NCBI RefSeq assembly: GCF_030686945.1
Contig: NW_027122708.1
Span: 5,866,248 to 5,930,247, forward strand
DNA from: Centruroides vittatus
Taxonomy: Eukaryota
Direction of reading: 5' to 3'
DNA length: 64,000 nt
A program made the translations under genes and the position numbers. Under the pieces are notes generated by a model, which saw only the letters and a list, made by a program, of their open reading frames with translations, had not been told where the DNA came from and searched no databases. This document shows, one piece after another, positions 5,995 through 63,620 of this stretch. The stretch's first letter is position 1, and each line of letters opens with the position of its first letter.

Positions 5995-7917
5995 TCCAAC
6001 ATGACTAAAACACATGGCTGTACCTACACCTTCTGCAAACTGGACATGATATCCTTATACCCATCTGTTCCTATATTTGAAGCCATAACGCTAGCCAATG
6101 CTATGCTCCTCAGAAAGGAATTTACTGTTCAACAGGTGCTAGATATTCATGAAGCACTAACTTTCATCACTGAAAACAACTACAGGTAGGCCTCCTACAA
6201 TGCGTTTTCACTCCAATGCGTTTGGAAAAACGCGGAAATTTTCTTACAATGTGGTACTTTTACAACACAGTTTAGGGTATTTAGAAACAAATTATCTTTC
6301 ACATAACGGAAAAATCGCAATGTATCACATAAGGGCAGTGGAACTTGATGAAACAAGTTCAGATCTTGAAATAAGGCCAGTCAAATATTCTCGAACATCT
6401 ATAATAAGTGACGATGAGGACTGAATTTGTGAGCATAACATGTTTCTTTTTGATTTTGACTTGAAATCATAATCTTTTTAGTTTTTATATGATGTTGAAT
6501 TTTATTTAAGTTTTTTTATGTACATAAATTTAAAAAATGATGAAAATGTTACACCATAAAAGGCAGTTTTTTCTCTTTTTAGAACTGAATCCCAGTTTTT
6601 GTATTAAGTTGGTGTCTCCTATAATGTGATTTCCCACAATGTGGTATTTTCAAGAAATGTATCTACCATGTTGTAGGAGGTCTACCTGTATTTCGGTTTT
6701 AACAAGAAAGTCTACTTGCAGAAGCAAGGAGTTCCCATGGGCTCTCCTCTCTCCGCAGTTTTGACCAAGCTTGTCACGAGAGACAAAAAACTTTTAACAC
6801 CCCACTATCTGCTATCCGTCACTATATTTACACTATGTCGATGACATCCTAATAATATGGGAAAATACAAAAGAGGAGTTCATCAAATTTAAGCAGCAAC
6901 TTTCAAGCATATACACCACCATCAATTTCACCTGGGAGAAGGAGCAGGATCAATCTACAACGTTCTTAGATTTGCGACTACAAAAGTCACTTGAAAGGCT
7001 TCAGTTTAAAGTGCATCATAAATCCAACGTGATACCTTATATCATCCCAGCCGATGCTTTTCAACCGTCACGGTATGTCAATGCCACCATAGCGGCTCTC
7101 ATCAGAAGGGCCCTACTACTTCCATCATTGCAAGCTCTAACAGAGGTTGAATTGGAAATCATCAGAAGGGCCCTACTACTTCCATCATCGCAAGCTCTAA
7201 CAGAGGTTGAATTGGAAATCATCAGAACGGCAGTATGTCACACTAGTTTCACAGGTGCCAAATTTTCACGTACTATGTAGGGTAAAAGATTCCCTTTTCC
7301 TATTTACCATGCTACACAGCAAGAAAGATATATCTATAGTACAATCAGCATTGCCGTACCTAGGACCACCCTCCATACACATTAGCTGTATTTTCCAGTG
7401 GCATAACTTTGCTCGCCCTCTAACTCCCTTACCAAGTCTACACACGAACATATGCAATCATCGAGATAAAGTATCTACTTTAGAAAAATCAGGAGTGTAT
7501 GCAGTACAACTAGAAAATCCGGTAACAGGAGCAATTGAGATATATATAGCGGCAATGACAAGAATGCTCGCTTGCCGCATTGCAGAGCATCAGGAAGATG
7601 TAGCCAAAGGAAAACAAACCACAGATCTCACCAAAAAAGTTCTACAGCAAGGCTACAACCCATTGTGGTCCAAAACACAATTCCTCAAGCACTGTAGTAG
7701 CAGAAAGATTGTATTTATTTGGGAAGTGCTTTTCACAATGACTACAGATGCATGCAATGTTCCTGCCCTCGACTTGCCGAGATATTTAAATGCTGATATA
7801 AGGCTACCCATAACGAAATGTGCCAAACGTCGTACAATTAGCATGATTGCAATTCAATGCACGTGCCGCCTGCTGTGTGAATTTAAAAGTTTTCGAATAT
7901 TCTCTAAAGCTTGTTGA
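5995..7917 (+). mobile_element. Degenerate Penelope-like element (PLE) copy e: RT (F.KLD…YPSVP, GVPMGSPLS, YVDD) plus GIY-YIG endonuclease (SGVYAVQL…IYIAAMTRMLACRIAEH), with frameshifts and an internal insertion
   Basis: ORF 6001..6189 carries RT motif 1/2. Region 6700-7080 carries RT motifs A-C across frameshifts. ORF 7207..7917 carries GIY-YIG. The order RT then GIY-YIG is diagnostic of PLEs. Confidence 0.7.
7100..7221 (+). repeat. 61-bp perfect tandem duplication inside PLE copy e
   Basis: atcagaagggccctactacttccatcattgcaagctctaacagaggttgaattggaa occurs twice in tandem, and a third partial copy starts at 7222. Confidence 0.85.
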
Positions 7918-8579
7918 ACATTACTAATGGTTTTACCGGATGTTTGATTCAAAAATCTTTAAGAATTTTCTGCTCTCCTTGGAACACTCTGCACGTTCTT
8001 TTTTTTATGTTTTTCTTTTTCGCCTGAGGACGACGAATTTATACTCGTCGAAAGTACTTGCGATATAAGAAATATTGTATTAATGCTGAACTCAGTGCTC
8101 GTTATTAAGACATTATATATGACTTTATCACAAAAAACAAGAATTTCAGAAGAGCCAGGTCCTTCATCACAAAAAATGAACTTTACATTTCTGTGTGCAT
8201 ATGTTTGTGTGTTATATTGTTATGCAAATTAATATAAAATATGTTAAATAAGTTAAAATTATAGTAAAATTTGTTCATTTGTGTTCGCAATCCCCTTTCC
8301 TTATTTACTCTATGTTAAAATGACCTCATGTAATGCTGTTTTGCTTAGCGCTTTGTTGTCTAGGAACAAATCCCCCGCATTAAGCAGGGTCTTACACTGT
8401 ATGTATATAAATAGTTAAATAATATATATACAGTATATATATATATATGAGAAATTTTGTATATTATTATTTAACTATTTGATGCAGTCATCCTATCCTT
8501 GGTGAGAGAATGGAATGGAATAATATAGATTCAAAGGCCTCAAACTAGTTCAATTGACCTAGAATTCATAAAAGAACCA

Positions 8580-13595: not shown

Positions 13596-14101
13596 TTAAC
13601 AATATTTCAATTTAATTAAGAGCACTTTTAATTATTAATTTAAGATAATTTATTAATTCATTAAAAAATGAAAATAATAATAGGCTACAAAATAAAACAC
13701 AGTGGACTAAAATTACAGAATGACCTCAAATTATACCCAAATCTAGTGAAAAAAAATAAATTAATAATAATAATATATCCAAAAACAAATAGCCTTCAGC
13801 TATCATCAATGTTCAAAGTTACATTCTATTTTCAAACACTACACCAGAACCTGATGATGATAGCTGGCTATTAAAAACATTTGTTTTTGGAAAAATATTA
13901 CCTTTTTTTTTTTTACTGAATTTTAGTTTAATTTGAGGTCATTCATAATTTATCCAGTTTTTGTGGTGGTTGTATTATAAAATCACAAATATTTCATTTC
14001 CCAAGCTACTGTTAGTTTATATTAACTAAGAAAGCACTACAAATTCTTAATTATAAATCTGATAAATGATAAAAATTTAAATTAAACAATGTCTTCTTTA
14101 C

Positions 14102-14424: not shown

Positions 14425-14535
14425 CGTTCACAGAACCAATAACCAGTGTGCACAGAAGCAAAAATTAATGTAAATGTTTTCAAACTCCACCAGGGTTCTT
14501 CTTCAGGAGTTATAACAAACACCAGATGGAATGTC
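14425..14535. repeat. Solo copy of the roughly 150-bp repeat that forms the inverted arms around PLE copy c
   Basis: gaaccaataaccagtgtgcacagaagc…ttttcaaactccaccagggttcttcttcagg matches aaaccgataaccagtgcgaac…ttttcactgcccctcctgggctcttcctcagg at 21885-21960. Confidence 0.55.
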
Positions 14536-18365: not shown

Positions 18366-18709
18366 AGTCATGCCATAAAAAAATGTTTTGAGAGTTCCAT
18401 TGTACCTTTTGTTTTTGTTTGCCTCTTATTTCAAACTTTGTTCTTTCTTGTACCCATTAGTCTTGAATTCCACTGTGAAATTTAAATATTTAGAATATTT
18501 AAATGTTGAGGATATTGTACTGCATGTAATGACATTCTGTTCCAAATTCAAAACATTCATTAGCCTGATGATGATAATTTTGTATCGTTGAAAGTACTTG
18601 TGTTATAAAAAAGATTTAAAAGATATTAAAGACTTTTTTATAACACAAGTACTTTCAATGATCTAACAGTGTATGCATCTAGTATTATAATTAATACAAC
18701 TACAGTAGA

Positions 18710-19025: not shown

Positions 19026-19189
19026 TTTTAAAATCTAAAAGTGACAATTGATTTTGCTGTATGTTATATTTGGGACTTAGTATGATCCCCATTGTTCTGC
19101 AATGCTCTCCTCCCTGTTGCATTTTATAATTATTCTTCATATAAACAATCAATATTAAATAATATATGCCTACTGGAGCTAAATAAACT

Positions 19190-19656
19190 ATAAATGATAT
19201 AAATAACACCTTTTTAACAATCCAGCAAATGTTTAATTCGTTAAAAAAAAACATTTTCGACCAATTTCAGTGGTCTTCATCACTGATTCTAAAGTTAAAA
19301 GAATAAAGCATTCGAAATTTACAAAAAACAAAAATAAACAAAAATAAACTCAAATGTGGTTGCGCAGATCAACGGAAATGCACTTATGGGTTAATCAAAA
19401 TTATAAAAATAAATATAAAAAAAAATACAACAACTAAATATAAATAAATAATAGTGCCATCCAAGAAGATACATCTATTAACTTGTATTAATATTAAAGG
19501 ACTGCCAGGCAGTGGATAATCCATCAGCATCCTTGTGATTGATGCATTCTGTGGTTACATGTGCCTTGTGTGGTTACATGTGCCATTTTTTCAAGATGCT
19601 TTTTTCAAATTAAACATTTGCTGGATTGTTAAAAAGGTGTTATTTATATCATTTAT
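19190..19656. repeat. Inverted repeat pair (50-bp arms 19190-19240 and 19606-19656); MITE-like
   Basis: The 50-bp segment aattaaacatttgctggattgttaaaaaggtgttatttatatcatttata is present in both orientations. Confidence 0.6.
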
Positions 19657-21854
19657 AACAATCAATATTAGATTTTTGTCATTAACTGAAATTTTTGAGC
19701 CTTATAAACATTTGTTCTGAAGTCATTATCATAAACGTCATAAATAAATAATGCATTTTTGAATGTCAAAGTCTGTTAATTACTGTCTATGCTAAAAATA
19801 AAAACCATTCATGATGCTAACTTCAATTTTATTTCTATTAATCAACATATTGCAACAAGTTTACAATTGTACAGTACATGCTAGTCTACGACGATGATAA
19901 GTTCTAAAATTAAAGTGTTATTTTAATCTAAAATATTTTAATGTTAACTTATCAGTTTAGTGTTACATGGCAAATTGTATGTTAGGCCTATTTAATTATA
20001 TGTACAATTTAATTTGAATTTTCCAAACTATAATAATAATTAATGGGTTTGTAAATTACGGTTTTATTTTGTGCACAATAATTTTTGGGGAAATTTTGTG
20101 TACATTTGGTAGAATTTTGGATTCTGAAAATATTCTGCACCCCTTTTCATAAGTTGCATTGTACCACAGTATTTCTTGCTTCCTGCATATGGGTACACTT
20201 AGTCATTGTATAGTAGTGTATTGTGAGCAAAAATATCAACAAGGCAGACAAGGAGGCAATTCCCCGACTTTTTGACAATTTTTGACAAATTTCCTGACTT
20301 TTCCTGATTTTCCAGGTGCATAGGAATGTATGTTTCTGTATGTTTCAAATTGCAGAATGTTTTAAATATGTTGTTTTATGTCACTGCTCTAACAGACTTT
20401 ATTTTTTGATATTAAAGTTGGTTACAAAAATTCTCATCATCAATCCCTCAGAAGTTATAACAATTCATACAAAATAAATATGGTAAAAAATATTTTATAA
20501 ATATTATATTCTAACAGTCAGTTGTAGCCTCATATAAAATTTGCCATTTTATGTTTTTCCCCTAATTCATGTGATAATGGGTGGATCCCACAGCTTGTGT
20601 TCTTGCAGTTCATGTGATTTTCCTTGATGGTAGTCTTAAAAATTTCCCAAGTTTCTAGTGTTCCGAGTTTTTGCACATTAAAACTTGTTTAATTAATTTT
20701 GCTTCCTCCCAGTTGACTGTTATACCAGGATCATTTGTGTACTGGGCTAGTACTGTCGATAGTTTGTTGTGCTCAGTTCTCAGCTTGCTCTTGGAATTTC
20801 CTTGATGTAAACCTACAGCGTGCCCTACAAAAACATTTGCTTCAAGTATAATTCAGTACACAAGAATAAATGTTATACAGCTGGAAAAGTGTGCAAGATT
20901 GTTTGTAAGTCATTTTTTACAAAGTATTTAAAATTTTAAAAACTTTTTACAAATAAGTTTTAAATCATTACATTTTAAATTTATGAAATTTAACAATTAT
21001 TTGTTCTTTAGTAGAAATTCTTATATACATAAATTAGACTATTGTAGTCATTTATAGTGTATTGTGATCAATTTATATCATATATATGCAAATTATATTG
21101 TCTAAAAATGTATAATTTGCAAATTTATTACAGTAAAGCATGTGAAAGTGTAAGATATGCTGTAAAATTAATAACCACACAGGTCATACTTAGATTGCTG
21201 GAAGTTGTCATTGTACCTAAATATGGCAAAAGCACTGCACTGTATGCATGATACATAGATAACATAATAATATGGAGGAAACCCAACATCCAACACTTCA
21301 TTAAAAATATTAATTCAAACCTGTAGGGCTTAAAAATAGAATTAGAACAAGAAAATGCTGAGGATGCACATTTCCTGGACATCTTAATCATGCTGAAAGA
21401 ATGGGCTATCACCATATATTTACAGGAAACCAACATATAATCTGCTGTTTGTCATGGGAGGCCCATGGTATATAATCAGCTACAAGCTAGTAACATTTAG
21501 GGCTCTAATAAAAAGAGCCCACATGCACTGTAAGAATGTGCAAGACAGAATATGAGAGCTAGAATACATTAGAGCATTTAGAAGGCAATTTAGAGTCAAA
21601 TATACAACCTTAGCAACTATGATCAACAAGTGCAAGTGTTAAAGAGGTACAATACAAAAGATGAAAAAGCAGGCAGGGTACACAATAGTAGAACATATGG
21701 CATCCTTCTGTAACAAACAGGAAAATAGGAAAAACTACAACAAAGAATAGAATTACTTTTAAAAGGAATTCCACTATTCACAGGCTACTGCATAACAACA
21801 AATTTTAATTTATATTAAGTTATATTCTTGTTTTACTATATTTTTATATATAAA

Positions 21855-22665
21855 TTATATACAAAAAAATTAAATACCTTCTAAAACCGATAACCAGTGC
21901 GAACTATTTTTCGAAATGGTGAACATTTTCACTGCCCCTCCTGGGCTCTTCCTCAGGCCAATTCTGGATTTGATAATCGAACAGCATAAATAAATGGAAC
22001 GTGTTGAGAAGCCTATTGAGAAATGGAAAAGACGCACTTAACCCGTATAGGCTTCCGGGAGTGTATAGTATCCCTCTACAGGACGACAGATGGCAGAAAC
22101 AATTACTGTACATAGGGTCCACTAAACGCCCACTATGCACTAGAATAAAGGAGCATAAATCCGACATTACCCGCCATAAATACACAACGGCATTGTCAAC
22201 GTATGCAGCAAACCCGGATATAACACAGAATTTTAATGAGGCAAAGGTGATCCGCACCACCCAACATCAAGAACATCTGAGAACTCTGGAGGAGATTGAA
22301 ATTTATAAAGCCGATCGCACAACAACATGTATTAATTTCAAAGAAGAAAGGAATCTCTCCACTGCTTGGCAGTTTTTATTGGAAGAAAGGTCGTAAATCA
22401 GTTGACGTCACGCGTATTTATCATAGGAGGCGCACATCGTTTTCCCAAACGGAATAAAAGGAAATTTAAATATTTGGAACGGCACGCGGTTGCCCAACGT
22501 ACTCGATCGTTTAAATTACGGAACACATTCCATTTATTTATGCTGTTCGATTATCAAATCCAGAATTGGCCTGAGGAAGAGCCCAGGAGGGGCAGTGAAA
22601 ACGTTCGCCATTTCGAAAAATAGTTCACACCAGTTATCGGTTTTAGAAGGTATTTAATTTTTTTG
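21855..22665 (+). mobile_element. PLE copy c: a GIY-YIG-domain fragment (22001..22396: LPGVYSIPLQDDRWQKQLLYIGSTKRPLCTRIKEH…) bracketed by 150-bp inverted repeats (21855-22005 and 22521-22665)
   Basis: The GIY-YIG motifs GVYxIPL…YIGxT.R.L..R..EH are present. The flanking arms are reverse complements of each other. The two flanking ORFs end in the identical peptide NTFHLFMLFDYQIQNWPEEEPRRGSENV. Confidence 0.7.
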
Positions 22666-22879
22666 TTTATACAACCCGGTGTGGGAGAAGTGTTAATAAA
22701 TTATATATATATATAAAAATATATATAATGTTAAAAGCAGAAGTCCAGCACATACATTTACAAGCTTTTTGTTGTTCTAAAAACATTAATATTCAAATTA
22801 ACAGTGGCATGTGGTGACATTTGATAATAGGGAAGCTATGTTTCCATAAAAATTTTAAACAAATACTGGAAATGACAAA

Positions 22880-27078: not shown

Positions 27079-28022
27079 AGTCAGTTCTAGACATTATTAG
27101 GTTCCTGATGCGTCGATATGATGGACAACACCTATCTAATGCATTATGTGCGTTGTTTCTCTCCTTTTGTATAATGCAGTTATGACATTTCGGGCTATGG
27201 TTTCTTTCAGAGCAATCTCTATATCTGTGTTTGCCCGCGCAATGGCTGCAGGTTTCCTCTAACTCCTTGCAGGTTTTGCTGGTATGGCCGAACCGGCAGC
27301 ATCTATAACACTGTATGATTGAATAGTGTTCTTCTGTTGGGCATCTTGCCCATTCTATATTAATCTTCTTTAGTGTGGTAAATATTTTTAGTATTTCAGG
27401 TGAGACATCAGCTACCCAGTTGACTGTCATTCTTACCACCACCAAACGCGAAGCACAGCCCAAGCTCCTCGATAAATCTTTCTCTATTGATATTTGACTG
27501 AATCATTTCATTCTGATCAAAAACACAGTTTGCTATTTCAGCTTTGTCCAAGTGTTTCGACACCTGTCTAATCACCACTTTCGGACTCCTTTTGTTTGGT
27601 ATGATTGTTTTGAGGGTGGGGGCCTTTACCTTAAGCGCATTTTCAAGAACTTGTAATTCACTCCCTTTACTGACATCAATGGCTATCCCACCTCTATCAA
27701 TTCTCCTGAAGCCACTGATTCCCACCCTTAACTGTATAGGATCGATTTTTTCTTTTATTATACTTTTTATGTCCTCCGACCCAGTGTTACTGTCCTTTGG
27801 ATAAACTAGTAGTGTGCTACGCAGATTATTTGATTTTGGTTTAGGAATGTTTACCCCCCCCCCTTTGACAATATCACTATACAGTGTCTTCTGTTCTGTC
27901 CCACAAACAATATTACTAAATTCCTTACATGTCTGTTTGATGGCACTATTCCACGGCAGAGTCGACCTTTTATTTGAGGCTTCTCGTCCGCCTTCAAATG
28001 TAAGCCTGAAATAAAAGGTCAA
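27068..28022 (-). CDS. LINE ORF1 (gag-like, 3x CCHC), interrupted by one frameshift
   Basis: The ORFs 27408..28022 and 27068..27463 overlap in different frames. Zinc knuckles are in the 3' part. Confidence 0.65.
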
Positions 28023-28044
28023 CTCCGCCGTGGAATTGTCTTAG

Positions 28045-28137: not shown

Positions 28138-29079
28138 ATCATCCTGGCTTATTTTTAAAAATTAAAAAAATAAATAAATAAATAAATAAATGGTTTATTT
28201 ATTTTAATTCTAAAATAGATAATTGACACGAAATAGATGTAAAAACTTGTTTTTATTATTTTTTCTGAACTAACTCTATTCGGCAATTTTTTCTGCAAAG
28301 TCGTTAATTACTTTATTATAAAAATCGCTTGTCATTGATTCCATCAAAGTATGTAAAAGCCACATAATGCGATTATAATAAAATATTAATTTTAAGTAAT
28401 TCAAAAGTATGTTAAAATATGAAAATAATCGCACAATATGTATTTATAATTTTAGAAAATACAAGGGAAGTGGCACTTCCACAGCTTCCATGAACAACAC
28501 ATCACTGCAAATTAAGTAATTCTACAATACATTATGGCTTTTTTTTGTTTGTTTTAAATTGTAAATTTCTTGAAGAAGGTCAATTAAGAAGACTGAAAAT
28601 GTTAGCAAAATAAACTTACTGCACTGTAAAGGTAGTTGTACTGCAGTATGCAGTAAAACCTCCAACTTAAGTAAGGCTTTTCCATCTTAGACAGTCTTCC
28701 AACTTTTACCCAAAGTTGAAAATAAAAGGAAATGGTTTGAGTTCATGAAAGTCATATATGATGAATGAAAGAAAATTTTACAATTCCTGAAAGAAGCTGA
28801 GTTTTCAAATTATTTCCTGAATTGAAGAAAAATCATTGAAGAAAGGGTACAGAAGCTCAGAATGCTTATTTTGAGATAAAATATAAGTAAATTTATTTAA
28901 AATTACAAGTTTTGATTTGAAAGTTTCAGAAAAGGATTTTATCCTTTGACCGTATCTTGAAGATTTGATCATAATCATCAAAATTATTTTAATCCTTGAT
29001 AATATCTTAGAAAAATTTTGAAAACATACTCCAGAATCTTTATAAAAAAGAATGCTTTCTTCTAAATTGCAATACTTAC

Positions 29080-32525: not shown

Positions 32526-32729
32526 TTATATTTCATAAATTGCCCACAAAGCATTTGAAAGGTTTTCCGCATCCCAATGATTGATGCAGTGTGACCTTTC
32601 GTGTGGTTTATATATTCCTAATTTTTTCATAAATCCAATGTTGTGTAAGTTAAAAGTGGGCCTAATAATTTTGGCTTGATCCCATTGAATGTACACATCA
32701 TTGTTCTCTGAATAAGCTGCTAGTACCAT
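32526..32729 (-). mobile_element. PLE copy d: degenerate C-terminal GIY-YIG fragment
   Basis: DVYIQWDQAKIIRPTFNLHNIGFMKKLGIYKPHERSHCINHWDAENLSNALW is collinear with copy a DVDVHWDKASIIRATTNKQMLKHLEKLEIYKAHVNTGCINHRDADGLSTAWK. Confidence 0.6.
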
Positions 32730-33595
32730 GTTACTGAGGTTTTTTCTAGCTGTGTATTAATGTTCTTTGACCCTCTGCTGTAAATTACAAAGAGTAGCCA
32801 CTATGTAAACTAGCTTTGAATTGAAACAATGGTCATTGACCATTGGAGTAAATCCCAGTGGGGAAGTCCTAATCATGTGGTTTTTATCATCATTCCTCAG
32901 CATCTTAAAAATCATTGGATTAAATTGAAATACTATATTCCTGACTTTGTTATTTTGAATTTGTAATTAAGAATTTGAAAAGTTTGTAACTGAAATTGAT
33001 CAATGAAATCTGATTAAGAACGTTATTATTTCAATAAATTTTTAGCTGGATTTACCAAGGTTTAGTTTATTGGTTTATTTGAATCTATCCAGTTTTTCCA
33101 CTTCCTTGATTATTAACAGATCTGTAAACAATCATAAATTCCAACAAATCCTTTAATAACTAACATTTGACTGTATTCAAAAGCCTTACATCAAATTACA
33201 TTATTTTGAATATATTAAAACATCTATGAAGACATTGTGAGCATCTTTGATATTTGAAATTGGTTAATTTTCTAAAATCAAGCTATTAGTAACATTCAAA
33301 AAAATTTTGATAAAACTAACTTTATCACTAACAAAACAGACTACTATTAAAAGTCTGTTGTTTACTTGCTTAAAAAATCTTAAATTTTGAATAAACATTC
33401 TTGTCTTTGTAAATTCTGTAATACAGTATGTTGAAATAAAGATTATAAATGACAAACTATTTTGTGCCCATATATACAACCACTATATGACCACTTGATT
33501 TCCCCCAAGAACAGTCACAAATAAGAAGTTTTATTGTATGTTGTTCTTTTTAACTTATATTAGTCTTGAAAATTTTAAAACTTCTTAATTATTAC

Positions 33596-34496: not shown

Positions 34497-34765
34497 TTCA
34501 GTTTTTTGGTTATCAATTAGCAGTTTTTTGAAATCTTTTAGTTTTAAATCCTTTTCATTTTTTTCCATTATCTGATAGTATTTTTGTGTGTACTTTTAAT
34601 AAAACTGCTAATTGATAACCAAAAAACTGAAATTTTCTTCATAATCAATTAGCAGTTTTATTAAAAGTACACACAAAAATACTATCAGATAATGAAAAAA
34701 AAATGAAAAGGATTTAAAACTAAAAGATTTCAAAAAAACTGCTAATTGACACCAAGAAACAGAAA
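34497..34765. mobile_element. Foldback element: roughly 115-bp arms plus a palindromic centre
   Basis: cagttttttggttatcaattagcagttttttgaaatcttttagttttaaatccttttcattttttt… is repeated as its reverse complement from about 34645. Confidence 0.75.
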
Positions 34766-36310
34766 TTTTGTTCATATTCTTTCTTCCAAAATATTCTACA
34801 AATTAATTAATTCAATTTAATTATTAAATTTAGTACAAGACGGCAACTTAATCATCTATCTTTACCCAAATTATATAATATCACTGTATTTAATTAGCCA
34901 GGTTATAATACTAGATTCATTATCAGGCTTTAAGTTAATTTGATTACAGAATTTGGTCTTGGTTTATTGTAATAAACATTGAATGTATATTATTGTGACT
35001 GCCACAATGCCAAGCTGCAGTTTTTAATCATAAATTATAAAAAAATCATGAAAATTCTGGTCTTGATTAAAAGTCATGTGATTATATACTACTCGTATAT
35101 ACTTAACTATAGCAATTAACTATATAGAGATTTCTGGTCCAGGCTGGAAGTTCATATATAGTTAATTGGGAGCTCCAGCCCATATCAGGTGTTAATTTTT
35201 GTCTAGCTCTGTCTTCAAGGTTAATGAATGACAGATGGACAGACAACAGTGAGAATGAATAGGTCTGCAATTTGAATTGCAGCCTAATAATAAAGATTTT
35301 AATTTAAATGAAATTTGGTCCTCAGAAATAATTTGGATATTCTATGGTGAAAAGTGTCGTCCCTATCTTACTGTTTCAGTACATTGCATATAATCTTTGT
35401 ACTGAGTCAGTACTGCTAATCTTCATATAATGTGGTTTCAATATAACGTGGTTCACAAATTGTAGCAATCCTTGTACAATGCAATTTAGATACGAGTCCA
35501 TATGAAATCATCTGTTTACCTTATTCTATTAAATGTTCTTTCAATTACAACATACTTCCAATGTAGATTATACAATTTTTCCCCTACATGGTGAAAGCTT
35601 CTCTCTACAATGATGAAAACTTTTTATTTTGCATGGCAATCTTATTAAAAAAATGTAAATTATTATTCTGTGCTAACAAGTATGTAATTTATATACTAGA
35701 AATTCCCTTTGGCATTTTGTATGTAAGTTGCATGCTGCTTATAATCATCTTTTTCAGCTGTGTTCTTGAAAATAGCATTCAATTAGATAATAAGTGTTGA
35801 CAAGTTAGTTAAAGACATACAGTAAGTCCATATCAATTCTAAGTGATTAAAATTATGTTTTAAATTTTAATAAGTTTGTGTTTGTTTTGCAATTCATGTT
35901 TTGTTAAATGAAATTTTCTGAAATAAATAAAACTATTTTTTCTTACATGATAGATAAAATTTACATTAAAAAAATCATTTTGGAATGTAAACTCATTTTG
36001 TATGTAATGCGAGTCTCAAATAATGCAATTTTTATAACAAGACATTTTTGTGGAACCTAACTACTTGCATTATATGAGGGTTACCTTCATAAAAGAAAGA
36101 AAAACAATAGATGACTTTAAGTAGATTGATATAGATAAGTTAGGTTTAATATCAATTTAGACAACAGTTTTTTATACATAAAATAAAAAATGCTATCATT
36201 CTGATTCATGAAAAATTGAATTTATAAAGCATTATTTGTAAATTTGCAAGTTAAACTTTGATCATAGTTTATATTAACTATAAGTAAATCAGCTACTGGA
36301 AAAATAAACT

Positions 36311-38779
36311 ATTAAAAAACAAAAACCTTAATGTTTCCAGCAATAAAAACTATTTAATAATAACGTTTTCGACTGTTTTAAACAGCCATCATCAGTTAAA
36401 ACGAACTTAAACAAAAAAGAATGCAGAAAAATAGAACCAAGCAATACAAATATTTAAAATTCAAAAATAATTCCAAAGTAAAAATGCCGTCGTATATTAG
36501 AAACTAACAAAACTGTGCATGCGCTAAATATCGTAGTAAGAATAAAAATAAAAACAAATAACAAAAAATACTGCCGCAAAAATATTTCTATTACAAGAAA
36601 GAACGTTATGCATTTCGGTAAAACGACTTCCATGCCGTGGATAAACCATCTGCGTCCCTATGGTTAATGCAACCCGTGTTAACGTGGGCTTTGTAGATTT
36701 CCAGCTTTTCTAGATGTTTCAGCATTTGTTTGTTGGTCGTGGCCCTAATAATAGACGCTTTGTCCCAATGAACGTCGACATCTTGATGCTTAGCGAAAGC
36801 TGCTAGCACAGTAGTATCCAAGCTCTTATTGATGGAGTATCTATGCTCCTTAAGCCTCTGCTTTAAATGTCTCATAGTTGCACCAACGTATACCAGATCT
36901 GTATTAAACCGGCGATCTTTTAAAGGTATAGAATATACCCCCGTCTTAAAACTCTGGTTTTCTTTCTTCTTGTCGTTTCTCAATAATCGATATATTGTAG
37001 GATTACATCGATACAACAATCTTATGTTGTTATTTCTGGCTACTTTCTTAATCATCGTGTGCAAGAATGGAAAATAATTGAGAATTACTTTTCTTCCTTG
37101 ATTCATAGGAGGAAGCTGCCGATTTTTTGCCTTCCGAAATTTGTCGATAAGCCCATCAATCTCCTTACTCCGATATCCGTGTTGTAATACTGTAGTGCGG
37201 ATGTAACTTAATTCCTTGTAGGTGTCAATAACACTGGTGCAATGTGTGTGAGCACGTTTGATCCAGGCATGAAAAGCTGCATATTTAAAATTCATCGGAT
37301 CGAAAGAATTTTTTGGTATAATAATGGGCTGATAGCTGGGTTTTCTATAAACGTCCGTCCATATTTGACCCTCCTTGCATGTGATTGAAAGATCAAGGAA
37401 ATTTACATTAGAAGCACTTTCTTGGTCCAGCGCTAAAGTCAAACCATATGGGTTTTTGTTGATTTCTTGAAGGAAATGCAGAGCGCTACTATCATTTTTC
37501 CAAAGGATGAAAACATCATCAACATATCTTGTATATAAAACGATTTGATGTTGAAAGAAGGGTATGACTTTGTTTTCCAAGCGACGTAATACAAGCTCAC
37601 ATAAAATAGAGGACATAGGGCTCCCCATAGGCACCCCTCTTTCTTGCAAATATGTTTCATCTTCAAATTCGAAAAAGCGATGTGTAACAAATTAAATTTG
37701 CAAGTTCCAAAATGCTGGAATGGTATTTCGCTGCATTATCTATATTAGCAAAAAGAAAGTCCCTCAGTTCACAAAAACACGGCGGCAGTCTTATAGACGG
37801 AAACAAGGACTTAAAATCCATTACCGTCATATATTCCTTATCCTTGAGTGTAATGTTGTTGAGCTTTTCCACTAGTTGCACTGCGTTTTGTATAGCATAG
37901 GAGTATTCTTGAATCTTTGGCCGGATAAACTTGACAAGCTGCTTCTCAATGGCAAATGTAGGAAATCTGCACTTCTCTATTACCGGGCGTATTTGGTAAC
38001 CAGGCTTGTGCGTTTTACCAAAGGCGAAAATTCTAGACATTTTTGGAGCCTGTAAAACTGAATTATGCATACGCAAAATACGAGCCAACGGGGTTAAAGA
38101 GAATTTCTTGACTCTTTGTTGCAGCGATTCCATGTATTTGTTGGGAGCATGTTGACATTCGGTGGTTCTGATGTATTCATGTAATTTATGGTTATACGAG
38201 TCACGTTTAATAAGGACAACACCTTTAGATTTATCCGCTTTAATAAGTACTATATCATTCATTTGTAGCCATTGCCTTGACATTTCAATGCAGTTGTGGA
38301 ATCGTCTTGCTTCTAACTTAAACTTTCTTTCATTTGTGGAGCTAAACCTTGCTTTCCATCTGATGTAATCTTGCCTGGTAGCATTCATATCCTTAATAAT
38401 TAATTCAACATTTGGAATAATATTCTCAGGCCTTGGTACAGTAGTAGGAGCAAAGAGTGGGCCATATTTTAGAGCTTCAAAAAGACACTTTGGAGGAGTG
38501 ATGTTATCCCAAGTTGTTATAAATGTATTATTAATCAAGCGAGGTTTACTATGATATTTAGCGCATGCGCAGTTTTGTTAGCTTCTAATATACGACGGCA
38601 TTTTTACTTTGGAATTATTTTTGAATTTTAAATATTTGTATTGCTTGGGTTCTATTTTTTCTGCATTCTTTTTTGTTTAAGTTCGTTTTAACTGATGATG
38701 GCTGTTTAAAACAGTCGAAAACGTTATTATTAAATAGTTTTTATTGCTGGAAACATTAAGGTTTTTGTTTTTTAATATA
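36311..38779 (-). mobile_element. PLE copy a (most complete): ORF 36606..38538 with RT (FKSLFPSIRLPPCFCELRDFL, PMGSPMSSILCE, YVDDVFILW) plus GIY-YIG (GVYSIPL…YVGATMRHLKQRLKEH), one stop/frameshift near 37650, bracketed by 225-bp perfect inverted repeats (36311-36533 and 38552-38779)
   Basis: The motifs are as listed. The arms are exact reverse complements. The arm carries a CUGAUGA…GAAA hammerhead-like core (see findings). Confidence 0.8.
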
Positions 38780-45949: not shown

Positions 45950-48300
45950 ATTGCCAGAAATAGCTAAAACCAGAGAAAATGTAATTGTTTTATAACAAGC
46001 TTTAAATATTATATTTTACATCCGAGATAAAACAATTTTAAGGTATATAAAAGTACTGCAGTATTACAGTATATGTTACTAGTGTGTGCTGTTGAAGATT
46101 TTTGGGCTATATACAATAATTTTTATTGTGTGTTGTATGAGGGGTTGGCAATCCATTAGGAGAGAGGAACGGTATTTAAGGCGATGCAGATTGGCAACAG
46201 GGCTTTTGTTTCTTCTTGCTGGCTGGTGAGAGGTTGCCTGAGTCAACAAAACGTGTGTATTTTTTTTTTTGTGTGTGTGTTACGGTGTTTGAAGTGACCG
46301 CATGGGGCAGTAGAAGCAATCTACATGGAATCGATTATCAGACTTGGAGTGAAAAAAAAAATCTGTTTGCATTGGCTAGAATACTCTCTGAATAAGTAAG
46401 ACTTTATGTTAAATTTAAGCAATTACCAGTAGTAGATATTTGTAAAGAGGTAGTTTCAGGAGAGACTCAAGTGTGGGTTAAAACAACAGACTTGTACTCA
46501 ACTCATTGTACAGGTGAACCTGTCTGGTTCCCTAGGTGTCTAGTGTATACATGTGTTCTAGTGGACAACTCTGTAAATTTTGTATATATATTCTTTTGTA
46601 CATAAACTTATTGTTAAGCTGACCTTTTCTTTGTCCTCCTCATGTGGTAATCATTCACCTGCACAGTAGTCATAACACTGATTATTATGTTTTCCACAAG
46701 TGCTAAATTATTTTGTACAAGTTATATATATATGCATACATACCACAAAATATAACTTGTACAAAACAATTTAGCACTATTCACTAGTAACATATTACAC
46801 TATATCATAAAATTGTATTATCTCAAATGTAAAACATAATATTTAAAGCTTGTTACGTTTTACATCTTGTTCTCTGGTTTTATATATGTTACAGTCAAAA
46901 CCTATTTTTAGTTAGAATGCGTTTTAACTAGTTGAAACTAGTTTACACTGGATGTCTTTGTTAAAACCTGTTTTGTCTAGTTCATTTTTGACTAGCAGTA
47001 AATTCTAGTTTTAACTAAACAAAACCCGTTTTGTCTAGTTAATTTACTGCTGTACATGTTTTCATTTTAGATAAAACTAGTTTTAACTTTTAACATTAGT
47101 TAAAACTAATTTTAGCTACATAAATATGTTTGGGGGAAAGATTCGGGGGAAGATGTCTAACATTATGCTTATGAAGGAAATTATAACGATAATTTGGGTT
47201 TTGGAGGCCTCTAACAAAAATATATTCTTAAGCATGTTTTTCAAATAAAAGTTTGGAGTATATGAAAAATAATTGTATATTGTGTTTGCAATGACGACTT
47301 TTTTACTGTCTGGCATTTTAGGCACCTCACCCCAAGTATCCGGGTGAAATGCCAAATGCCATTAGGGTAAGATAACAAATATAATTGCATAAAATTAATT
47401 CTCAAATATCTTAACCAAATTTAATTTATCGCATATGTAGTACAAAGTACTTCATAGTAAGTATAACAGCGCGTATAAGTATTGTTAAGTTTCCGCCCGT
47501 TCTAGCATGCTCTATAGCTAGCCGAAAGCTCTTTTCAGTCCTAAAACCTTTTTGAGAAGTCCTTATATAATTTCTATGCATATGCTGCAATAAAACAAGA
47601 AAACAAAAATTTATTTAAAATAGGCATATTGGAATTCAATTAACAAAAAATAGGTATGTTACCCCAAGAAAAATGTGGCACCTATCCCATTTGTTGGAGT
47701 AAGATGCCTAGCGGAGTCACGTGTTCTAGCGTGTCTGATCGGGATCGGCGATAGCTCACAATGGAAACTTTAGAACTTTAACTACATCACACATTAATTG
47801 TTTTACGCAATTTTTAATAAATTATATTTTAACTTTTAGTTTTAAAATGATTCTAGAAACATTTCACAACAAAAACTTCATTCTTATCTTGCTTTTATTC
47901 TTCTCGGATGTAGAAAATGAGGTAACGGTAGCCAACTACAGCTTTCCACACTCAATATTGGCCCAGCAATTCATCATACAAACACATGACAATATGTGAT
48001 GTCACCATTTGAAAATATCAAAAAGTAGGCATCTTCCCCCACTTACCATCTTACCCCGAATCACTCTAAAGTTGCAGTCAAAACTAGTTTTTAGTTAGAA
48101 CGCGTTTTAACTAGTTGAAACTAGTTTATACTGGATGTCTTTGTTATAACTAGAATTTACTTCTAGTCAAAAATGAATTTGAGTTAAAACTAGTTTTAAC
48201 TAGACAAAATGGGTTTTAACAAAGACATCCAGTATAAACTAGTTTCAACTAGTTAAAACGTGTTCTAACTAAAAATGGGTTTTGACTAACATATATATAT
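45950..48300. repeat. Complex nest of inverted repeats and foldbacks. It includes IR 45950-46090/46790-46885, hairpin 46689-46790, two copies of a CAGTCAAAAC…GATGTCTTTGTTA terminus (46892, 48075), and a near-perfect 225-bp foldback at 48075-48297 followed by (AT)n
   Basis: Direct comparison of the segments; see findings. Confidence 0.6.
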
Positions 48301-49700: not shown

Positions 49701-51789
49701 TTGGGTAAGCCTTACATTTTGTTACATGTTACATTTCACTTAAAAGCATCCCTGACATAAATTATCCAAGAATATTGTCAGATAGATAGATCGTGTTTTG
49801 GTAGCTGCCTGCATGGAGAGTGAAGACAGAGTGATACTTTTATTGATCGTACAACACAGTTTCTGTGATATGGCTATTACTATAGACTTTCCAATACATG
49901 GTTAGGTTTGTCTCAAGTATATTTGAATTATACAGAGACAAACTATAAGGATATTTACATTAATTGATATATGGCTGAGATAAAGAAAAACAATAAATTT
50001 TAAATTTAATAAATTCAGTAATAGATGAATTATGAAACAGTTTGAAGGATAAGATCTATTTTTACTCACCTTTTGAGAGAAAAGGATTACTAACATTTTG
50101 ATTTAATAAAAATCTGTTTTTACATGAACTTGAAAAATATGTATTAAGTTTTCTTTTTCCAGTTTCTGTAAATTCATAAGATTGAGGCCTAGAAAAATTA
50201 TTTAACTGGATTACTCATAATTAATAGTAATTTCAAAAGTTATTAAAAAGATTTAATGCTAATTGCAATAAGTAATTTGATATCACGGTAACAAAGTTTA
50301 TATGATTAAAAACTACATAGAATAAAAAACTCAAATGACAATCTATACATATCAATCAAAAATATATGACCTTAATCTTTCTAAATAGTAAATTTTAGAT
50401 AAAGAATGTAGACCTGCTTTTCAATTCAAATTACTAATAATTTACAGGAATATCTTACTCAGTGTGGCTTATCTTTAGTATGAGATTCATTATTATTTGG
50501 TTGGTATGAGCCAGAAAATTCAATTAATATAGAATGATTCACTATAATGTGGCCACTACTAACTTAAATATATATATATTATGAGAGAGTTTATAACTTT
50601 TAGTTTTAAAAAGAAATACTTACACTTATGTCAGTGTTTGTTAATAAAATACGGATCATCGCCATTTTTAATGGACAATTAATCAACATTTTAAATTTAT
50701 TTTAATAAAAAGCTACATATTCTTTTCAAAAAGTGCAGAGAAATTTGTACTCATGCATAAGTAATCAGTAATGGTTATTTAGCAATTACTTATGTGCAAT
50801 TACTTAGTGATTAAAATATTACTCACTAAATTATGGTATTAGGAATTTAAATCTTTAAAGAAAAAACTAATGTACTATGCATTTCTGGCAGAAATGTTGC
50901 CAATTTAGGTTAAAAAGAATTGGCAAAACAACTAGTGATGAAACTAGACATCAACTAAATGCCGAAACGCTATCGGCATTTGGTTGGTGTCTAGTTTTAT
51001 AATATATTGGGTTTAGCAATGTTGTTTATATACAACTAGTGATGTTCAATTTAGTCTTTCAGTCCTAATTACCTATCCATTAACTTTTTCTCATGCATCT
51101 TTTTTAAAAGATCTGCTTAAGATTAATTTTTAATAATGATCCAAATGAAAAACTCAGCATTTTATGCAAGAGAATGTAAGTTGGTACAACTGAGAACTTC
51201 ATGCAGTGAAGGAGGAGAGATGAGTCCAAACATTTCATTAAAAGAAAAATAAATTATTCACATATTTAAAAATTTAGTTGCAAAGTAAAGTAATAAAACT
51301 TTAGGTTTAAAAAGTAAAAAGATGGTATCTTTTATTTCTCCTCTTGTAGTATTTTAATGATCTTTTCATGGCAGGCAACACAATGTTGACCATCACTCGA
51401 CTTGAGTGACATCAAACTGAGTCAACCTTATTCTTTCTTGTCAATGTGCTGGCACAGCATAGTTGTCCCCACCTCACAACCTAGTATATTTCTTTTGTGT
51501 GTTTGTATGTTTTATGTAATTAGTAGACACAAGTAATAAATATCTGGAATTCATTCAGAAAATACACTATTATTTGATTTGTTTTTCTACTATGGCAATG
51601 ATAGTGCAATACATGCAGATGAGAACAGATTAAAAAGTGTACACAATCTCATCCAAGCATGTACTTGCCACCACAATGCCTCTGTGACCGTCGGCCATAT
51701 TGTATATATATATTTTATTGTATATAGTTGTAATCCTATCTTATTTTTGCCATTTCCTCCTTCCTTTGTCTATTCTTTCTTAAACTTTC

Positions 51790-63045: not shown

Positions 63046-63128
63046 GTTAGGTTTAGTTGTAAACATTTCGAAGTATCAAACACAAATTCGTGTTAATAAC
63101 AACCACTTGGCTTTTTTCCACCTTTATT

Positions 63129-63178
63129 TAGTTGATACGGTACACGTTTCGGGCCTTATGCCCCTCATCAGTCAACAG
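63129..63178 (-). ncRNA. Mirror-image hammerhead ribozyme motif on the minus strand (left arm of the palindrome)
   Basis: It is the exact reverse complement of the 63248..63297 motif. Confidence 0.75.
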
Positions 63179-63247
63179 TTCTTCCCCAGTATGGCACTTG
63201 TACACGGTAAGTTTGGACATTACAAACTGGGAAGAACTGGGGGAGAA

Positions 63248-63297
63248 CTGTTGACTGATGAGGGGCATAAGGCCCGAAACGTGTACCGTATCAACTA
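63248..63297 (+). ncRNA. Type-I hammerhead ribozyme motif: helix I cuGUUGA/UCAACua, core CUGAUGA, helix II GGGGC-AUAA-GGCCC, GAAA, helix III ACG-uguac-CGU, cleavage site GUA|U between 63290 and 63291
   Basis: All 11 conserved core nucleotides are present at canonical spacing (CUGAUGA…GAAA…UH). Helix I has 5-6 bp, helix II 4-5 bp with a GNRA-like loop, and helix III 3 bp. The helix III loop contains the palindromic GUAC, as in dimer-prone PLE-type HHRs. Confidence 0.75.
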
Positions 63298-63409
63298 AAT
63301 AAAGGTGGAAAAAAGCCAAGTGGTTGTTATTAACACGAATTTGTGTTTGATAATTTGTAAACATTTCCTAAAAATAATTATACGTTATATTTTGACATAA
63401 AATTATCAA

Positions 63410-63620
63410 TAGCGAGGTTGAGGCCGAAGTTTTAAACGCGAAAACGTGTACGTCGGGCGTTCAGCGCCGCTTTTCTGTAAGCCTAGAAGTTCGACAATGG
63501 CGTTTGGAATGTCGAGCATGATTCCACTGACTTTCCAAACACCATTGTCAAACAGAAAAGCGGCGCTGAACGTCCGGCGTACACGTTTTCGCGTTTAAAA
63601 CTTCGGCCTCAACCTCGCTA
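63410..63620. repeat. 210-bp GC-rich near-perfect palindrome (67-bp arms plus a 76-bp centre containing a nested 17-bp palindrome)
   Basis: tagcgaggttgaggccgaagttttaaacgcgaaaacgtgtacgtcgggcgttcagcgccgcttttctg…cagaaaagcggcgctgaacgtccggcgtacacgttttcgcgtttaaaacttcggcctcaacctcgcta. The nested palindrome is gacaatggcgtttggaa/ttccaaacaccattgtc. Confidence 0.9.

Follow-up and report, generated by a model that had tools for sequence, protein, structure and literature searches.

The genome of the scorpion Centruroides vittatus contains a reverse transcriptase-encoding element that is bracketed by long inverted repeats, each of which carries a sequence resembling the catalytic core of a hammerhead ribozyme. 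This arrangement raises two questions – whether the motif is a ribozyme of the kind associated with Penelope-like elements (PLEs), and how such an element comes to lie between inverted arms. We addressed both by analyzing a 64-kb stretch of DNA that includes the element (hereafter 'the window', meaning this whole stretch) together with related PLE loci from Centruroides sculpturatus, of which L001-L007 are cited below.

A truncated Penelope-like element and its inverted arms

The locus is a PLE insertion that consists of two opposed copies of one element – a long copy on the minus strand and a short copy on the plus strand (Table 1). The two arms align over 232 columns with 97.8% identity (BLAST) and differ at five positions: three are transitions and the other two are single-nucleotide indels in homopolymers. 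Within the motif-bearing stretch (36310-36434 and 38653-38777) there are no differences between them. With so few differences between the arms (5 in 232 positions), the insertion is young.

The 3′ termini of the element face outward, with position 36310 being the outer 3′ terminus of the long copy, and the truncated 5′ ends of both copies join at ~38545/38546. What look like inverted repeats are thus the 3′ UTR (pseudo-LTR) of the element, present twice, and alignment shows that they are homologous to the sequence 3′ of the PLE ORFs at C. sculpturatus loci L001 and L003-L007. We found no convincing target-site duplication in the flanks (...AAATAAAC / element / TATTAACT...), and a BLASTN search with the element recovered no further DNA-level copies of exactly the same family within the window. 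A short GCUGGA box near the end of the element is conserved in all relatives compared and may be part of a reverse-transcription initiation or 'tail' region.

Table 1. Coordinates of the element, its arms and the parts of the two hammerhead motifs, given as positions in the window.
Feature	Position	Strand	Description
Long PLE copy	36310-38545	-	
Arm 1	36310-36539	-	Pseudo-LTR / 3′ UTR of the long copy; inverted-repeat arm; aligns to relatives' 3′ UTRs
GCUGGA box	36336-36341	-	~20 nt 3′ of the predicted cleavage site, ~30 nt before the element end
Hammerhead motif, sense	36348-36407	-	Type I, PLE min-HHR with small palindromic helix III; from sequence, motif scan and covariance models
CUGAUGA	36395-36389	-	Sense motif
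Extra U	36388	-	Sense motif
Helix II	36387-36371	-	Sense motif
GAAA	36370-36367	-	Sense motif
Loop ACGU	36366-36363	-	Sense motif
U16.1	36362	-	Sense motif
A17	36361	-	Sense motif
Predicted cleavage	36361/36360	-	Sense motif
PLE ORF	36606-38545	-	'ADKSKG' N-terminal region, reverse transcriptase, C-terminal GIY-YIG endonuclease; 5′-truncated
Arm 2	38546-38777	+	Inverted, severely 5′-truncated copy; retains just the final 232 nt of the 3′ UTR
Hammerhead motif of the inverted copy	38680-38739	+	Antisense to the ORF
CTGATGA	38692-38698	+	Inverted-copy motif
Extra T	38699	+	Inverted-copy motif
Helix II	38700-38716	+	Inverted-copy motif
GAAA	38717-38720	+	Inverted-copy motif
ACGT	38721-38724	+	Inverted-copy motif
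T	38725	+	Inverted-copy motif
A (H17)	38726	+	Inverted-copy motif
Predicted cleavage	38726/38727	+	Inverted-copy motif

The long copy contains an ORF with one frameshift, near 37672-37676. Both halves of the ORF match the RVT_1 profile, and an endonuclease motif reads GVYSIP...YVGAT..R..EH. The GIY-YIG Pfam score of the ORF (20.8 bits) is under the 22.6 cut-off, and that of a relative with 62% identity (P0005) is above it, at 25.5 bits. Judged from these sequence features, the element is an endonuclease-bearing (EN+) PLE encoding a reverse transcriptase and a GIY-YIG domain. The ORF is 5′-truncated, as it has no start codon (no ATG) and its alignment to full-length relatives begins only at residue ~89-128. 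It has 95% identity to a C. vittatus protein (P0001), and it has dozens of Centruroides paralogues and, overall, thousands of PLE-like relatives; the four PDB sequence matches are weak (E ~1e-3), with three of the four being telomerase reverse transcriptases. No cysteine lies between GIY and YIG in the window copy or in nearly all of those Centruroides relatives whose motif was identifiable, and most of the distant relatives carry CxxC at this location. The nearest non-scorpion relatives without the GIY-YIG cysteines are Logan contigs.

The same architecture recurs, both in the window and in C. sculpturatus. A second inverted pair in the window (21856-22005 and 22522-22671) has 150-nt arms with 95% identity, and another lies at 19189-19246 and 19600-19657. 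At L001, inverted arms (2667-2942 and 5219-5510) surround the ORF; L002, L004 and L007 have opposite-strand copies of the motif on both sides of their ORFs; and L005 has one inverted, one direct and one downstream copy around a single ORF. PLEs with complex tandem or inverted pseudo-LTRs were reportedly recognized by Evgen'ev and Arkhipova in 2005.

An initial sequence-only reading of the window had identified the bracketed element as a PLE, as the RVT_1 matches to both halves and the C-terminal GIY...YIG now confirm. It had also noted the second PLE ('copy c') with its inverted 150-bp arms and had called the head-to-head pseudo-LTR architecture recurrent, and the pairs listed above agree with it on both counts. 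Its description of the arms as perfect 225-bp inverted repeats holds for their orientation and fails for their perfection and length.

A predicted hammerhead ribozyme in each arm

The motif lies ~200-210 nt 3′ of the stop codon and ~50 nt before the end of the element. In both arms, all conserved positions of the hammerhead core (C3 U4 G5 A6 N7 G8 A9 ... G12 A13 A14) are intact. One unpaired nucleotide – a U in the window – separates A9 from G10.1, and helix II is 7 bp long (G-C, G.U, C-G, U-A, G-C, U-A, U-A) with a UAA loop. Helix I is weak, consisting of 3 bp, a UU bulge and then at most four AU/GU pairs. Helix III is the A15.1-U16.1 pair alone (in the inverted copy, A 38720 with U 38725), which closes the palindromic ACGU loop, and H17 is an A rather than a G. 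Since helix III is only 1 bp long and AACGUU is a perfect palindrome, a stable helix III would have to form between two molecules. Metazoan PLE min-hammerheads whose helix III is small and palindromic in this way were reportedly described by Lunse, Weinberg and Breaker in 2016. We conclude that the motif is a predicted PLE-type hammerhead ribozyme.

Related C. sculpturatus PLEs carry the same motif ~200 nt past the ORF stop codon. Among 11 distinct relatives, only N7 varies within the core (U/A/G). H17 is A or U and never G, A15.1-U16.1 is A-U in 28/28 sequences, and the extra nucleotide after A9 is U, A or G. The palindrome varies in a few cases, with one relative having AGCGUU (self-complementary via G.U) and two having AACAUU, in which the central pair is broken. 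No block of the 3′ UTR is better conserved than the ribozyme, which has a column identity of 0.80-0.84 compared to 0.5-0.7 upstream. Mutated cores are nevertheless found in many further copies, both in the window and in the related loci; for example, G12 is missing at 13839 and in L002, and C3 at 19236.

Both helices show compensatory change. The closing pair of helix II (G10.1-C11.1) is G-C or G.U across relatives. In alignment A2, helix I is paired without exception at its first three positions, and at two of these both sides have changed; among relatives, covariation (AU to CG, UA to GC) extends over the first three to four pairs. Most training sequences were preselected by a scan demanding the core and helix II pairing, which inflates the following percentages: helix II has 92% of cells paired with double changes at 5/7 pairs in alignment A2, and 91% of cells paired with double changes at 6/7 pairs in alignment A3; the true structure pairs in 85% of cells vs 29-48% in partner-slide controls; and 29 distinct sequences pair in 90.9% of cells vs 68.8% when shuffled. 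The fixed position of the motif after homologous ORFs, and matches found by the model alone, ease this preselection bias.

Model R1 scored the window motif at 65.2 bits. With a leave-one-out covariance model built from the other species only (R2), both window copies scored 52.7 bits (E ~8e-11). No Rfam hammerhead model (clan CL00010) matched the target at its gathering score or at E <= 10, whether the search covered 64 kb, 2.7 kb or 101 nt. The Rfam models apparently miss variants with a 1-bp helix III and a 9/10.1 insertion. Elsewhere in the window, a more canonical hammerhead matched HH9 at 63243-63309 (14 bits), and long AT-rich hairpins gave many weak matches to miRNA families, all below gathering scores.

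These results bear on most of what the sequence-only reading had said of the ribozyme. Sequence and motif scan place CUGAUGA...GAAA in both arms where it had put them, and the palindrome, the core and the PLE context uphold its proposal of a dimeric PLE-type hammerhead with an intermolecular helix III formed through AACGUU. The CUGANGA...GAAA spacing, on whose presence in other copies it had made the proposal depend, is retained exactly in the C. sculpturatus copies, and helix II covaries, as it had suggested checking. Its second condition, that some structure model score the motif above noise, is borne out by the other-species covariance model and not by Rfam. It had given helix II 5 bp rather than seven, and had treated the U inserted after A9 and the weakness of helix I as non-canonical features of a possible relic; both are published hallmarks of the family (PMC4209133) and no sign of decay.

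Origin of the paired copies and competing explanations

We consider it very likely that the locus records one insertion of two opposed, 5′-truncated PLE copies, each having a PLE-type hammerhead in its 3′ UTR. Inverted 5′-truncated PLE copies that create flanking inverted repeats, and hammerheads within pseudo-LTRs, have been described (Craig et al. 2021, PMC8557442), as have opposite-strand hammerhead pairs in metazoan PLEs (Cervera & de la Pena 2014, PMC4209133). A PLE protein has been shown to cut and extend both DNA strands, and PLE reverse transcription starts internally, near the RNA 3′ end (PMC11167929). In the mechanism that we propose, the PLE protein would cleave both target strands and prime reverse transcription from each; with each priming starting near the RNA 3′ end, the product would be head-to-head with its 3′ ends outward. 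Where active elements lie head to tail, the presumed role of the ribozyme is to trim multimeric or read-through transcripts to unit length, and the ribozyme dimer would form through an AACGUU/AACGUU helix III between two copies.

The window copy itself is poorly placed for such activity. Head-to-head copies put the ribozymes on opposite strands, and there are therefore no two same-strand copies to form a dimer. In a read-through transcript, the sense ribozyme is predicted to be fully buried in a 228-bp panhandle with the inverted arm. As the copy lacks a start codon, has a frameshift and carries a single sense ribozyme that could be locked in the 228-bp duplex, it is probably inert. The AACGUU duplex is weak (~-3.5 to -5.5 kcal/mol). 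In the lowest-energy fold of an isolated 60-mer, helix II is kept and the CUGAUGAU core is paired with the 3′ AUUAUUA (-9.6 kcal/mol vs -2.9 for the hammerhead fold), which is weak evidence given that the ribozyme would act as a dimer, whose non-nested pairing is beyond the program.

Whether the motif is kept for self-cleavage can be questioned, as a conserved 3′ UTR structure could instead serve template binding or initiation by the reverse transcriptase/endonuclease. The motif falls within the last ~100 nt, where the 3′ UTR is best conserved, and lies next to the conserved GCUGGA and AAGGU boxes; PLE reverse transcription starts internally, as noted above, and published PLE min-hammerheads cleave poorly in vitro (PMC4209133). 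We nevertheless regard this explanation as improbable, because the invariant positions are the catalytic ones (C3-A6, G8, A9, G12-A14, A15.1-U16.1 and an H17 that is never G) and N7 is free, a pattern specific to catalysis. Experiments with the Anolis PLE bear on both sides. Its hammerhead does cleave, in a C3/G8-dependent manner and with activity restored in a C3G/G8C double mutant, and hammerhead mutants left in vitro insertion unimpaired (PMC11167929). The latter result would suit a motif that is not kept for cleavage, yet it cuts both ways, since mutating the motif did no harm to insertion. Less probable still is that the window motif is a decayed, catalytically dead relic. Its host copy is dead (truncated and frameshifted), mutated cores are common among other copies, and energy minimization favours a fold other than the hammerhead. 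Against this, the window copy has no core mutation and a perfect helix II, it sits in a young insertion, and the extra nucleotide and short helix I are shared by every relative as well as by the published consensus (PMC4209133). The ribozyme sequence is thus intact, and any silencing would come from its context, as it is the only sense copy and lies in a panhandle.

We rejected three further candidates – a chance motif, DNA-transposon terminal repeats and an assembly artefact – on the basis of shuffle expectation, the L001 and L005 layouts and 3′ UTR homology, and a combination in which a DNA transposon or foldback element supplies the arms as its terminal inverted repeats, or misassembly creates them, and the motif is fortuitous appears extremely unlikely. 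Long inverted repeats around an ORF do look superficially similar to such termini, and PLE structures are known to confuse short-read assemblies (Craig et al. 2021, PMC8557442). However, the ORF encodes a reverse transcriptase and GIY-YIG domain and no transposase, and the arms show homology to PLE 3′ UTRs also found in direct orientation (L005). The same layout appears in an independent assembly of another species, and the arms differ from one another at five positions. Markov shuffles predict 0.27 motifs per 64 kb on both strands, or 0.08 with a helix II of at least 5 bp, whereas 117 kb of related loci contain 18 matches, 15 of which are in the PLE family under study.

Relation to known elements and ribozymes

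Ribozymes of the dimer type are already known as typical of PLEs, and the Centruroides case is real but ordinary; this copy leaves current understanding of PLE hammerheads unchanged. In the literature searched, we found no link between hammerheads and Centruroides, and the locus extends the host range of PLE hammerheads to a scorpion lineage. The compensatory changes in helices I and II among 29 distinct sequences support the published min-hammerhead architecture, and the failure of the Rfam hammerhead models to detect this PLE class is relevant to genome annotation. The two-strand priming by a PLE protein seen in vitro (PMC11167929) is consistent with the head-to-head geometry, in which the 3′ ends point outward. 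It is conceivable, if rather doubtful, that Centruroides PLEs constitute an undescribed C-terminal EN+ lineage – Hydra-like or a new clade, in a terrestrial arthropod, having lost the CCHH zinc-finger cysteines, kept a covarying dimer-type 3′ UTR hammerhead and formed many paralogous families – or, as a second possibility, that head-to-head transcripts would form 150-230-bp perfect hairpins that feed small-RNA silencing and thereby self-limit the family.

Like the PLEs of Craig et al. 2021 (PMC8557442), the Centruroides element is 5′-truncated, has an inverted truncated copy abutting its 5′ end and carries hammerheads in its pseudo-LTR. It has the RWK motif (IRWKARF), and its N-terminal motif is DKS(KG) rather than DKG. 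In that study, the Hydra clade is described as having RWK, DKT in place of DKG, a CxCX5C linker and (TA)n targets, and as lacking CCHH. By this description, the Centruroides element resembles the clade in being short (<3 kb), in its single ORF, in its endonuclease without CCHH, and in having RWK, an altered DKG and hammerheads; it differs in that no CxCX5C linker is visible and the flanks of the insertion are not (TA)n. The Hydra clade was described from aquatic invertebrates, whereas Centruroides is a terrestrial host.

The motif shares the catalytic core, type I topology and short, often palindromic helix III of Rfam Hammerhead_1 and HH9, the class found in animal retrozymes and Schistosoma SINEs, but has the extra 9/10.1 nucleotide, a longer helix II and no recognizable loop-loop tertiary contact. 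In the Anolis Poseidon element the hammerhead overlaps the start codon; the Centruroides motif instead lies ~210 nt past the stop codon. The closest match is to the metazoan PLE min-hammerheads (PMC4209133). The predicted ribozyme of the window stands apart from those described in its scorpion host, and shares with them the type I topology, the full CUGANGA / GAAA core with its G10.1-C11.1 pair, the unpaired nucleotide between A9 and G10.1, the long (7-bp) helix II and short helix I, the 1-bp helix III with a 4-nt palindromic loop that makes a dimer necessary, and a location in the pseudo-LTR with occasional opposite-strand pairs.

Composition and geometry of the insertion

Between the two inverted arms, the minus strand carries an ORF in two pieces, split by one frameshift near 37672-37676. 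The ORF shares 95% identity with a C. vittatus protein, every strong match comes from C. vittatus or C. sculpturatus, and the coding remnants of the window indicate a Centruroides genome. Solved structures give four weak matches (E ~1e-3), three of them to telomerase reverse transcriptases, as fits a Penelope-like element (PLE). The C-terminus reads GVYSIP...YVGAT.R...EH and scores 20.8 bits against the Pfam GIY-YIG model (cut-off 22.6), with 25.5 bits for P0005, a full-length relative at 62% identity. The ORF lacks a start codon and is alignable only from residue ~89-128 of full-length relatives, implying that this copy is 5'-truncated. Six PLE protein remnants are present in the window. A C. 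sculpturatus 'terminal uridylyltransferase 4-like' protein (P0046, 1079 aa), whose first ~200 residues are 69% identical to PLE reverse transcriptase, is probably a chimeric gene model that incorporates an inserted PLE fragment.

The ORF is encoded on the minus strand, which makes the left arm the 3' UTR of the element itself. The sequence-only reading had described the arms as a perfect 225-bp inverted repeat. BLAST bears out the inverted repeat but aligns the arms over 232 columns and finds them 97.8% identical: they differ by three transitions and by two homopolymer indels of one base each, none of which falls in the outer 125 nt, where the motif lies. In the left arm the ribozyme core starts 211 nt beyond the stop codon (at 36606), and the element ends ~50 nt beyond the predicted cleavage site. 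The element's 3' terminus forms the outer end on both sides, and the truncated 5' ends meet at ~38545/38546. The arms are PLE 3' UTRs, and what the insertion consists of and how its parts are oriented are both established.

Features of the window and of one C. sculpturatus locus (L001); matches are to a covariance model built from 11 hammerhead sequences
Feature	Position	Strand	Remarks
ORF piece	38538-37663	-	RVT_1 match
ORF piece	37649-36606	-	RVT_1 match
C-terminal endonuclease	36606-36950
Left arm	36310-36539	- (ORF sense)
Right arm	38546-38777	+	second element copy, inverted, reduced to last 232 nt
Hammerhead motif	38689-38729	+	uaa CUGAUGA U GGCUGUU-UAA-AACAGUC GAAA ACGU U A / uua, predicted cleavage at slash
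Hammerhead motif, mirror image	36398-36358	-
GCUGGA box	36336-36341	-
GCUGGA box	38746-38751	+
Match	19236-19298	-	mutated core; adjoins PLE protein remnant 19484-19570
Match	32978-33038	+	mutated core; adjoins PLE protein remnant 32529-32966
Match	13839-13895	+	mutated core
Match	28559-28617	+	mutated core
Match	14456-14521	-	mutated core
Match	22559-22619	+	copy c hammerhead
Copy c inverted pair	21856-22005 / 22522-22671		150 nt, 95%
Third, small inverted pair	19189-19246 / 19600-19657
Head-to-head inverted pair	63066-63190 / 63236-63360		125 nt, 97%; motifs at -63171, +63255
Different PLE hammerhead family	8010-8075	+	downstream of PLE remnant 6542-7731(+)
Degenerate pair related to 8010-8075 motif	18567-18679
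Long near-perfect hairpins	46700-46777, 34576-34682, 27948-28036, 50928-51006, 63477-63566
L001 arms around ORF	2667-2942 / 5219-5510		inverted, 99%
L001 tight head-to-head pair	1754-1845 / 1849-1940		92 nt, inverted

Reading the sequence on both strands confirmed a PLE-type hammerhead motif with a complete core and palindromic AACGUU in each arm. In hammerhead numbering, C3-A9 is followed by one unpaired U, helix II, G12 A13 A14, and A at H17. Helix II, previously taken as 5 bp, has 7 bp on re-reading and is closed by G10.1-C11.1; A15.1 and U16.1 close the four-base loop ACGU, and helix I comprises 3 bp, a UU bulge, and at most four further AU/GU pairs. AACGUU (A15.1 to U16.1) is a perfect palindrome, so a 6-bp intermolecular helix III is possible between two copies.

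Scanning the AT-rich window (30% G+C) for core plus helix II returned seven motifs, against 0.27 per window in Markov shuffles (0.08 with helix II of at least 5 bp required). In the isolated 60-mer, the predicted lowest-energy fold (-9.6 kcal/mol) retains helix II, but its core nucleotides pair with 3' flanking sequence; the hammerhead fold is predicted at -2.9 kcal/mol and the AACGUU duplex at only ~-3.5 to -5.5 kcal/mol. These predicted energies agree with published weak, dimer-dependent ribozymes and offer no argument for vigorous activity.

Conservation and covariation in C. sculpturatus relatives

Relatives were sampled through nine C. sculpturatus proteins at 43-68% identity, giving loci L001-L010; the three closest C. 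vittatus proteins were left out. We found the same motif in L001, L003, L004, L005, L006, L007, and L010, and most motif-bearing loci carry a copy downstream of the ORF and on its strand, ~210-225 nt past the stop of complete ORFs. Hammerhead cores are free to vary at one position, N7, and this is the sole variable core position among the relatives; at H17 only A or U occurs, and no G. The CUGAUGA/GAAA spacing that the sequence-only reading had proposed to check in other copies is kept.

Hammerhead motifs of the window and of relatives, from C3 to H17
Source	Motif
Window	CUGAUGA u GGCUGUU UAA AACAGUC GAAA ACGU U A
L001	CUGAUGA u GAUCGCU UAA AGCGUUC GAAA GCGU U U
L003	CUGAAGA u GAACGCU UAA UGCGUUU GAAA ACGU U U
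L004	CUGAGGA u GAUCGAU UAA AACGAUC GAAA ACGU U A
L005	CUGAAGA a GAUCGUU AAGA AACGAUC GAAA ACGU U A
L010	CUGAAGA u GGCUUAU UAA CUAGGCU GAAA ACGU U U

Across 11 distinct aligned sequences, 85% of cells pair under the hammerhead structure versus 72% after shuffling (0 of 500 shuffles as high) and 29-48% with partners slid by 1-3 columns – percentages inflated in that most training sequences were first picked by a scan requiring core and helix II pairing. Helix II, where covariation had likewise been put forward as a check, is 92% paired, with both-side changes in five of seven pairs. In helix I, covariation is seen at two of the three leading pairs (A-U to C-G; U-A to G-C or G.U), whereas the remaining one stays A-U throughout.

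When this alignment was turned into a covariance model, the model found extra copies beyond the pattern-scan selection in L002, L008, L009, L010, and the window. Many have mutated cores and are relics; the five core-mutated window matches, with C3 or G12 lost (CUGAAAU and similar), are decayed solo pseudo-LTR fragments. In a wider set of 29 distinct sequences 90.9% of cells pair (68.8% shuffled, 33-42% slid), with double changes in six of seven helix II pairs and all four helix I pairs. The selection bias is limited by the fixed position of most sequences after homologous ORFs, and model-only matches covary too.

To judge the window copy fairly, we restricted a second model to C. sculpturatus sequences; under it, each of the two window copies reaches 52.7 bits (E ~8e-11), far above the rest of the window. 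The possibility raised earlier that no structure model would rise above noise thus holds for curated models – the Rfam 15 hammerhead models gave no match to the target at gathering score or E <= 10 with 64 kb, 2.7 kb, or 101 nt – but not for the family-specific one. In a whole-3' UTR alignment the ribozyme is the best-conserved block (column identity 0.80-0.84 versus 0.5-0.7 upstream); next come a conserved GCUGGA box and a terminal segment rich in AAGGU. The hammerhead is intact and evolutionarily constrained.

The GCUGGA box lies ~20 nt past the predicted cleavage site, in the same place in L001 and L003-L007, and a ~30-nt segment containing AAGGU(G/U)UU then closes the element. By position, these could match the reverse-transcription initiation or 'tail' region of the Anolis PLE.

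Inverted pairs and other hammerheads

The head-to-head architecture recurs, as the sequence-only reading had held. Copy c, a second and different PLE, has the inverted 150-bp arms ascribed to it, the window holds a further small pair, and L001 has inverted arms around its ORF. ORFs in L002, L004, and L007 are flanked by opposite-strand motif copies, and L005 shows the full layout of inverted copy, direct pseudo-LTR, ORF, and pseudo-LTR (motifs at -1766, +1872, +5228). In the copy c hammerhead, helix I is strong, AACGUU is present, and H17 is C, but the base of helix II is imperfect.

Other hammerheads were also observed. Each arm of the 63066-63360 pair carries a more canonical type I hammerhead (GUUGA CUGAUGA ... 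GAAACG-UGUAC-CGUA UCAAC) in which helix III has 3 bp and helix I has 5 bp; it scores only 14 bits against Rfam Hammerhead_HH9. No RT remnant lies near this pair, which may represent either the junction of a solo inverted pseudo-LTR or a unit of retrozyme type. In the 8010-8075 motif (CUGAGGA-c-GACGA...UCGUC-GAAA-GUAC-U-U/GCGA, slash at predicted cleavage), A9 is followed by an extra C, the GUAC loop is palindromic, and helix I is closed by GC. Another family occupies the tight L001 pair (CUGAAGA-a-GAACC...GGUUC-GAAA-ACGU-U-U), where one arm has lost G12 (GAAA to AAAA), showing that the two arms decay independently. The long hairpins match assorted Rfam miRNA families below threshold (e.g., mir-283, 35 bits versus a gathering score of 50), and most are probably foldback or MITE-like repeats.

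Proposed origin and comparison with known systems

One PLE protein, studied in purified form, cleaves and extends both target strands and begins reverse transcription internally, near the RNA 3' end (Frangieh et al. 2024, PMC11167929). We propose that, at integration, each of the two cut target strands served as primer for cDNA copied from the 3' part of PLE RNA, which would yield a head-to-head product from one cDNA of 2.24 kb and another of 232 nt. In active head-to-tail elements, the palindrome would let ribozymes dimerise in pairs and cut transcripts down to unit length. Here the ribozymes lie on opposite strands, so each transcript holds a single sense copy; when the 2,478-nt sense transcript is folded in silico, 60 of 60 ribozyme nt and 228 of 230 arm nt pair with the inverted arm. 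This burial, the missing start codon, and the frameshift point to a young but dead insertion, whose ribozyme sequence is intact because it has had too little time to decay (five arm differences) rather than through selection at the locus. The earlier interpretation is supported and its observation partly confirmed, with details corrected.

Metazoan PLE pseudo-LTRs carry 'min-HHRs' with a short helix I, a conserved G10.1-C11.1 pair, a palindromic 15.2-16.2/loop 3, and helix II above the usual size (7-8 bp in Schistosoma mansoni, 6 bp in Drosophila virilis); motif pairs close together on opposite strands were noted, and in vitro activity is low and requires dimers (Cervera & de la Pena 2014, PMC4209133). 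The extra U after A9 and weak helix I, previously called non-canonical, are both hallmarks of this family (PMC4209133). According to Craig et al. 2021 (PMC8557442), pseudo-LTRs can take either the direct or the inverted orientation. The hammerhead of the PLE studied by Frangieh et al. cleaves in dependence on C3/G8, and its ribozyme mutants still insert in vitro (PMC11167929). This kind of element is already well described – the scorpion host adds to it – and the finding is of low interest overall.

Among Centruroides PLE relatives with a findable GIY...YIG motif (the window copy and proteins P0001-P0037 and P0051-P0101 were compared), nearly all read GVYSIPL.D.RF...Y[VI]G[AS]T and have no cysteine between GIY and YIG. 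They thus lack the CC of CCHH, a motif described as universal for canonical C-terminal EN+ PLEs. The Centruroides PLE proteins show no CxCX5C linker. The nearest non-scorpion relatives without GIY-YIG-core cysteines are Logan contigs. Centruroides PLEs resemble the Hydra clade in RWK and in DKS replacing DKG. What appears most novel, judged from these motifs, is the element lineage itself – missing the CCHH cysteines and reminiscent of the Hydra clade.
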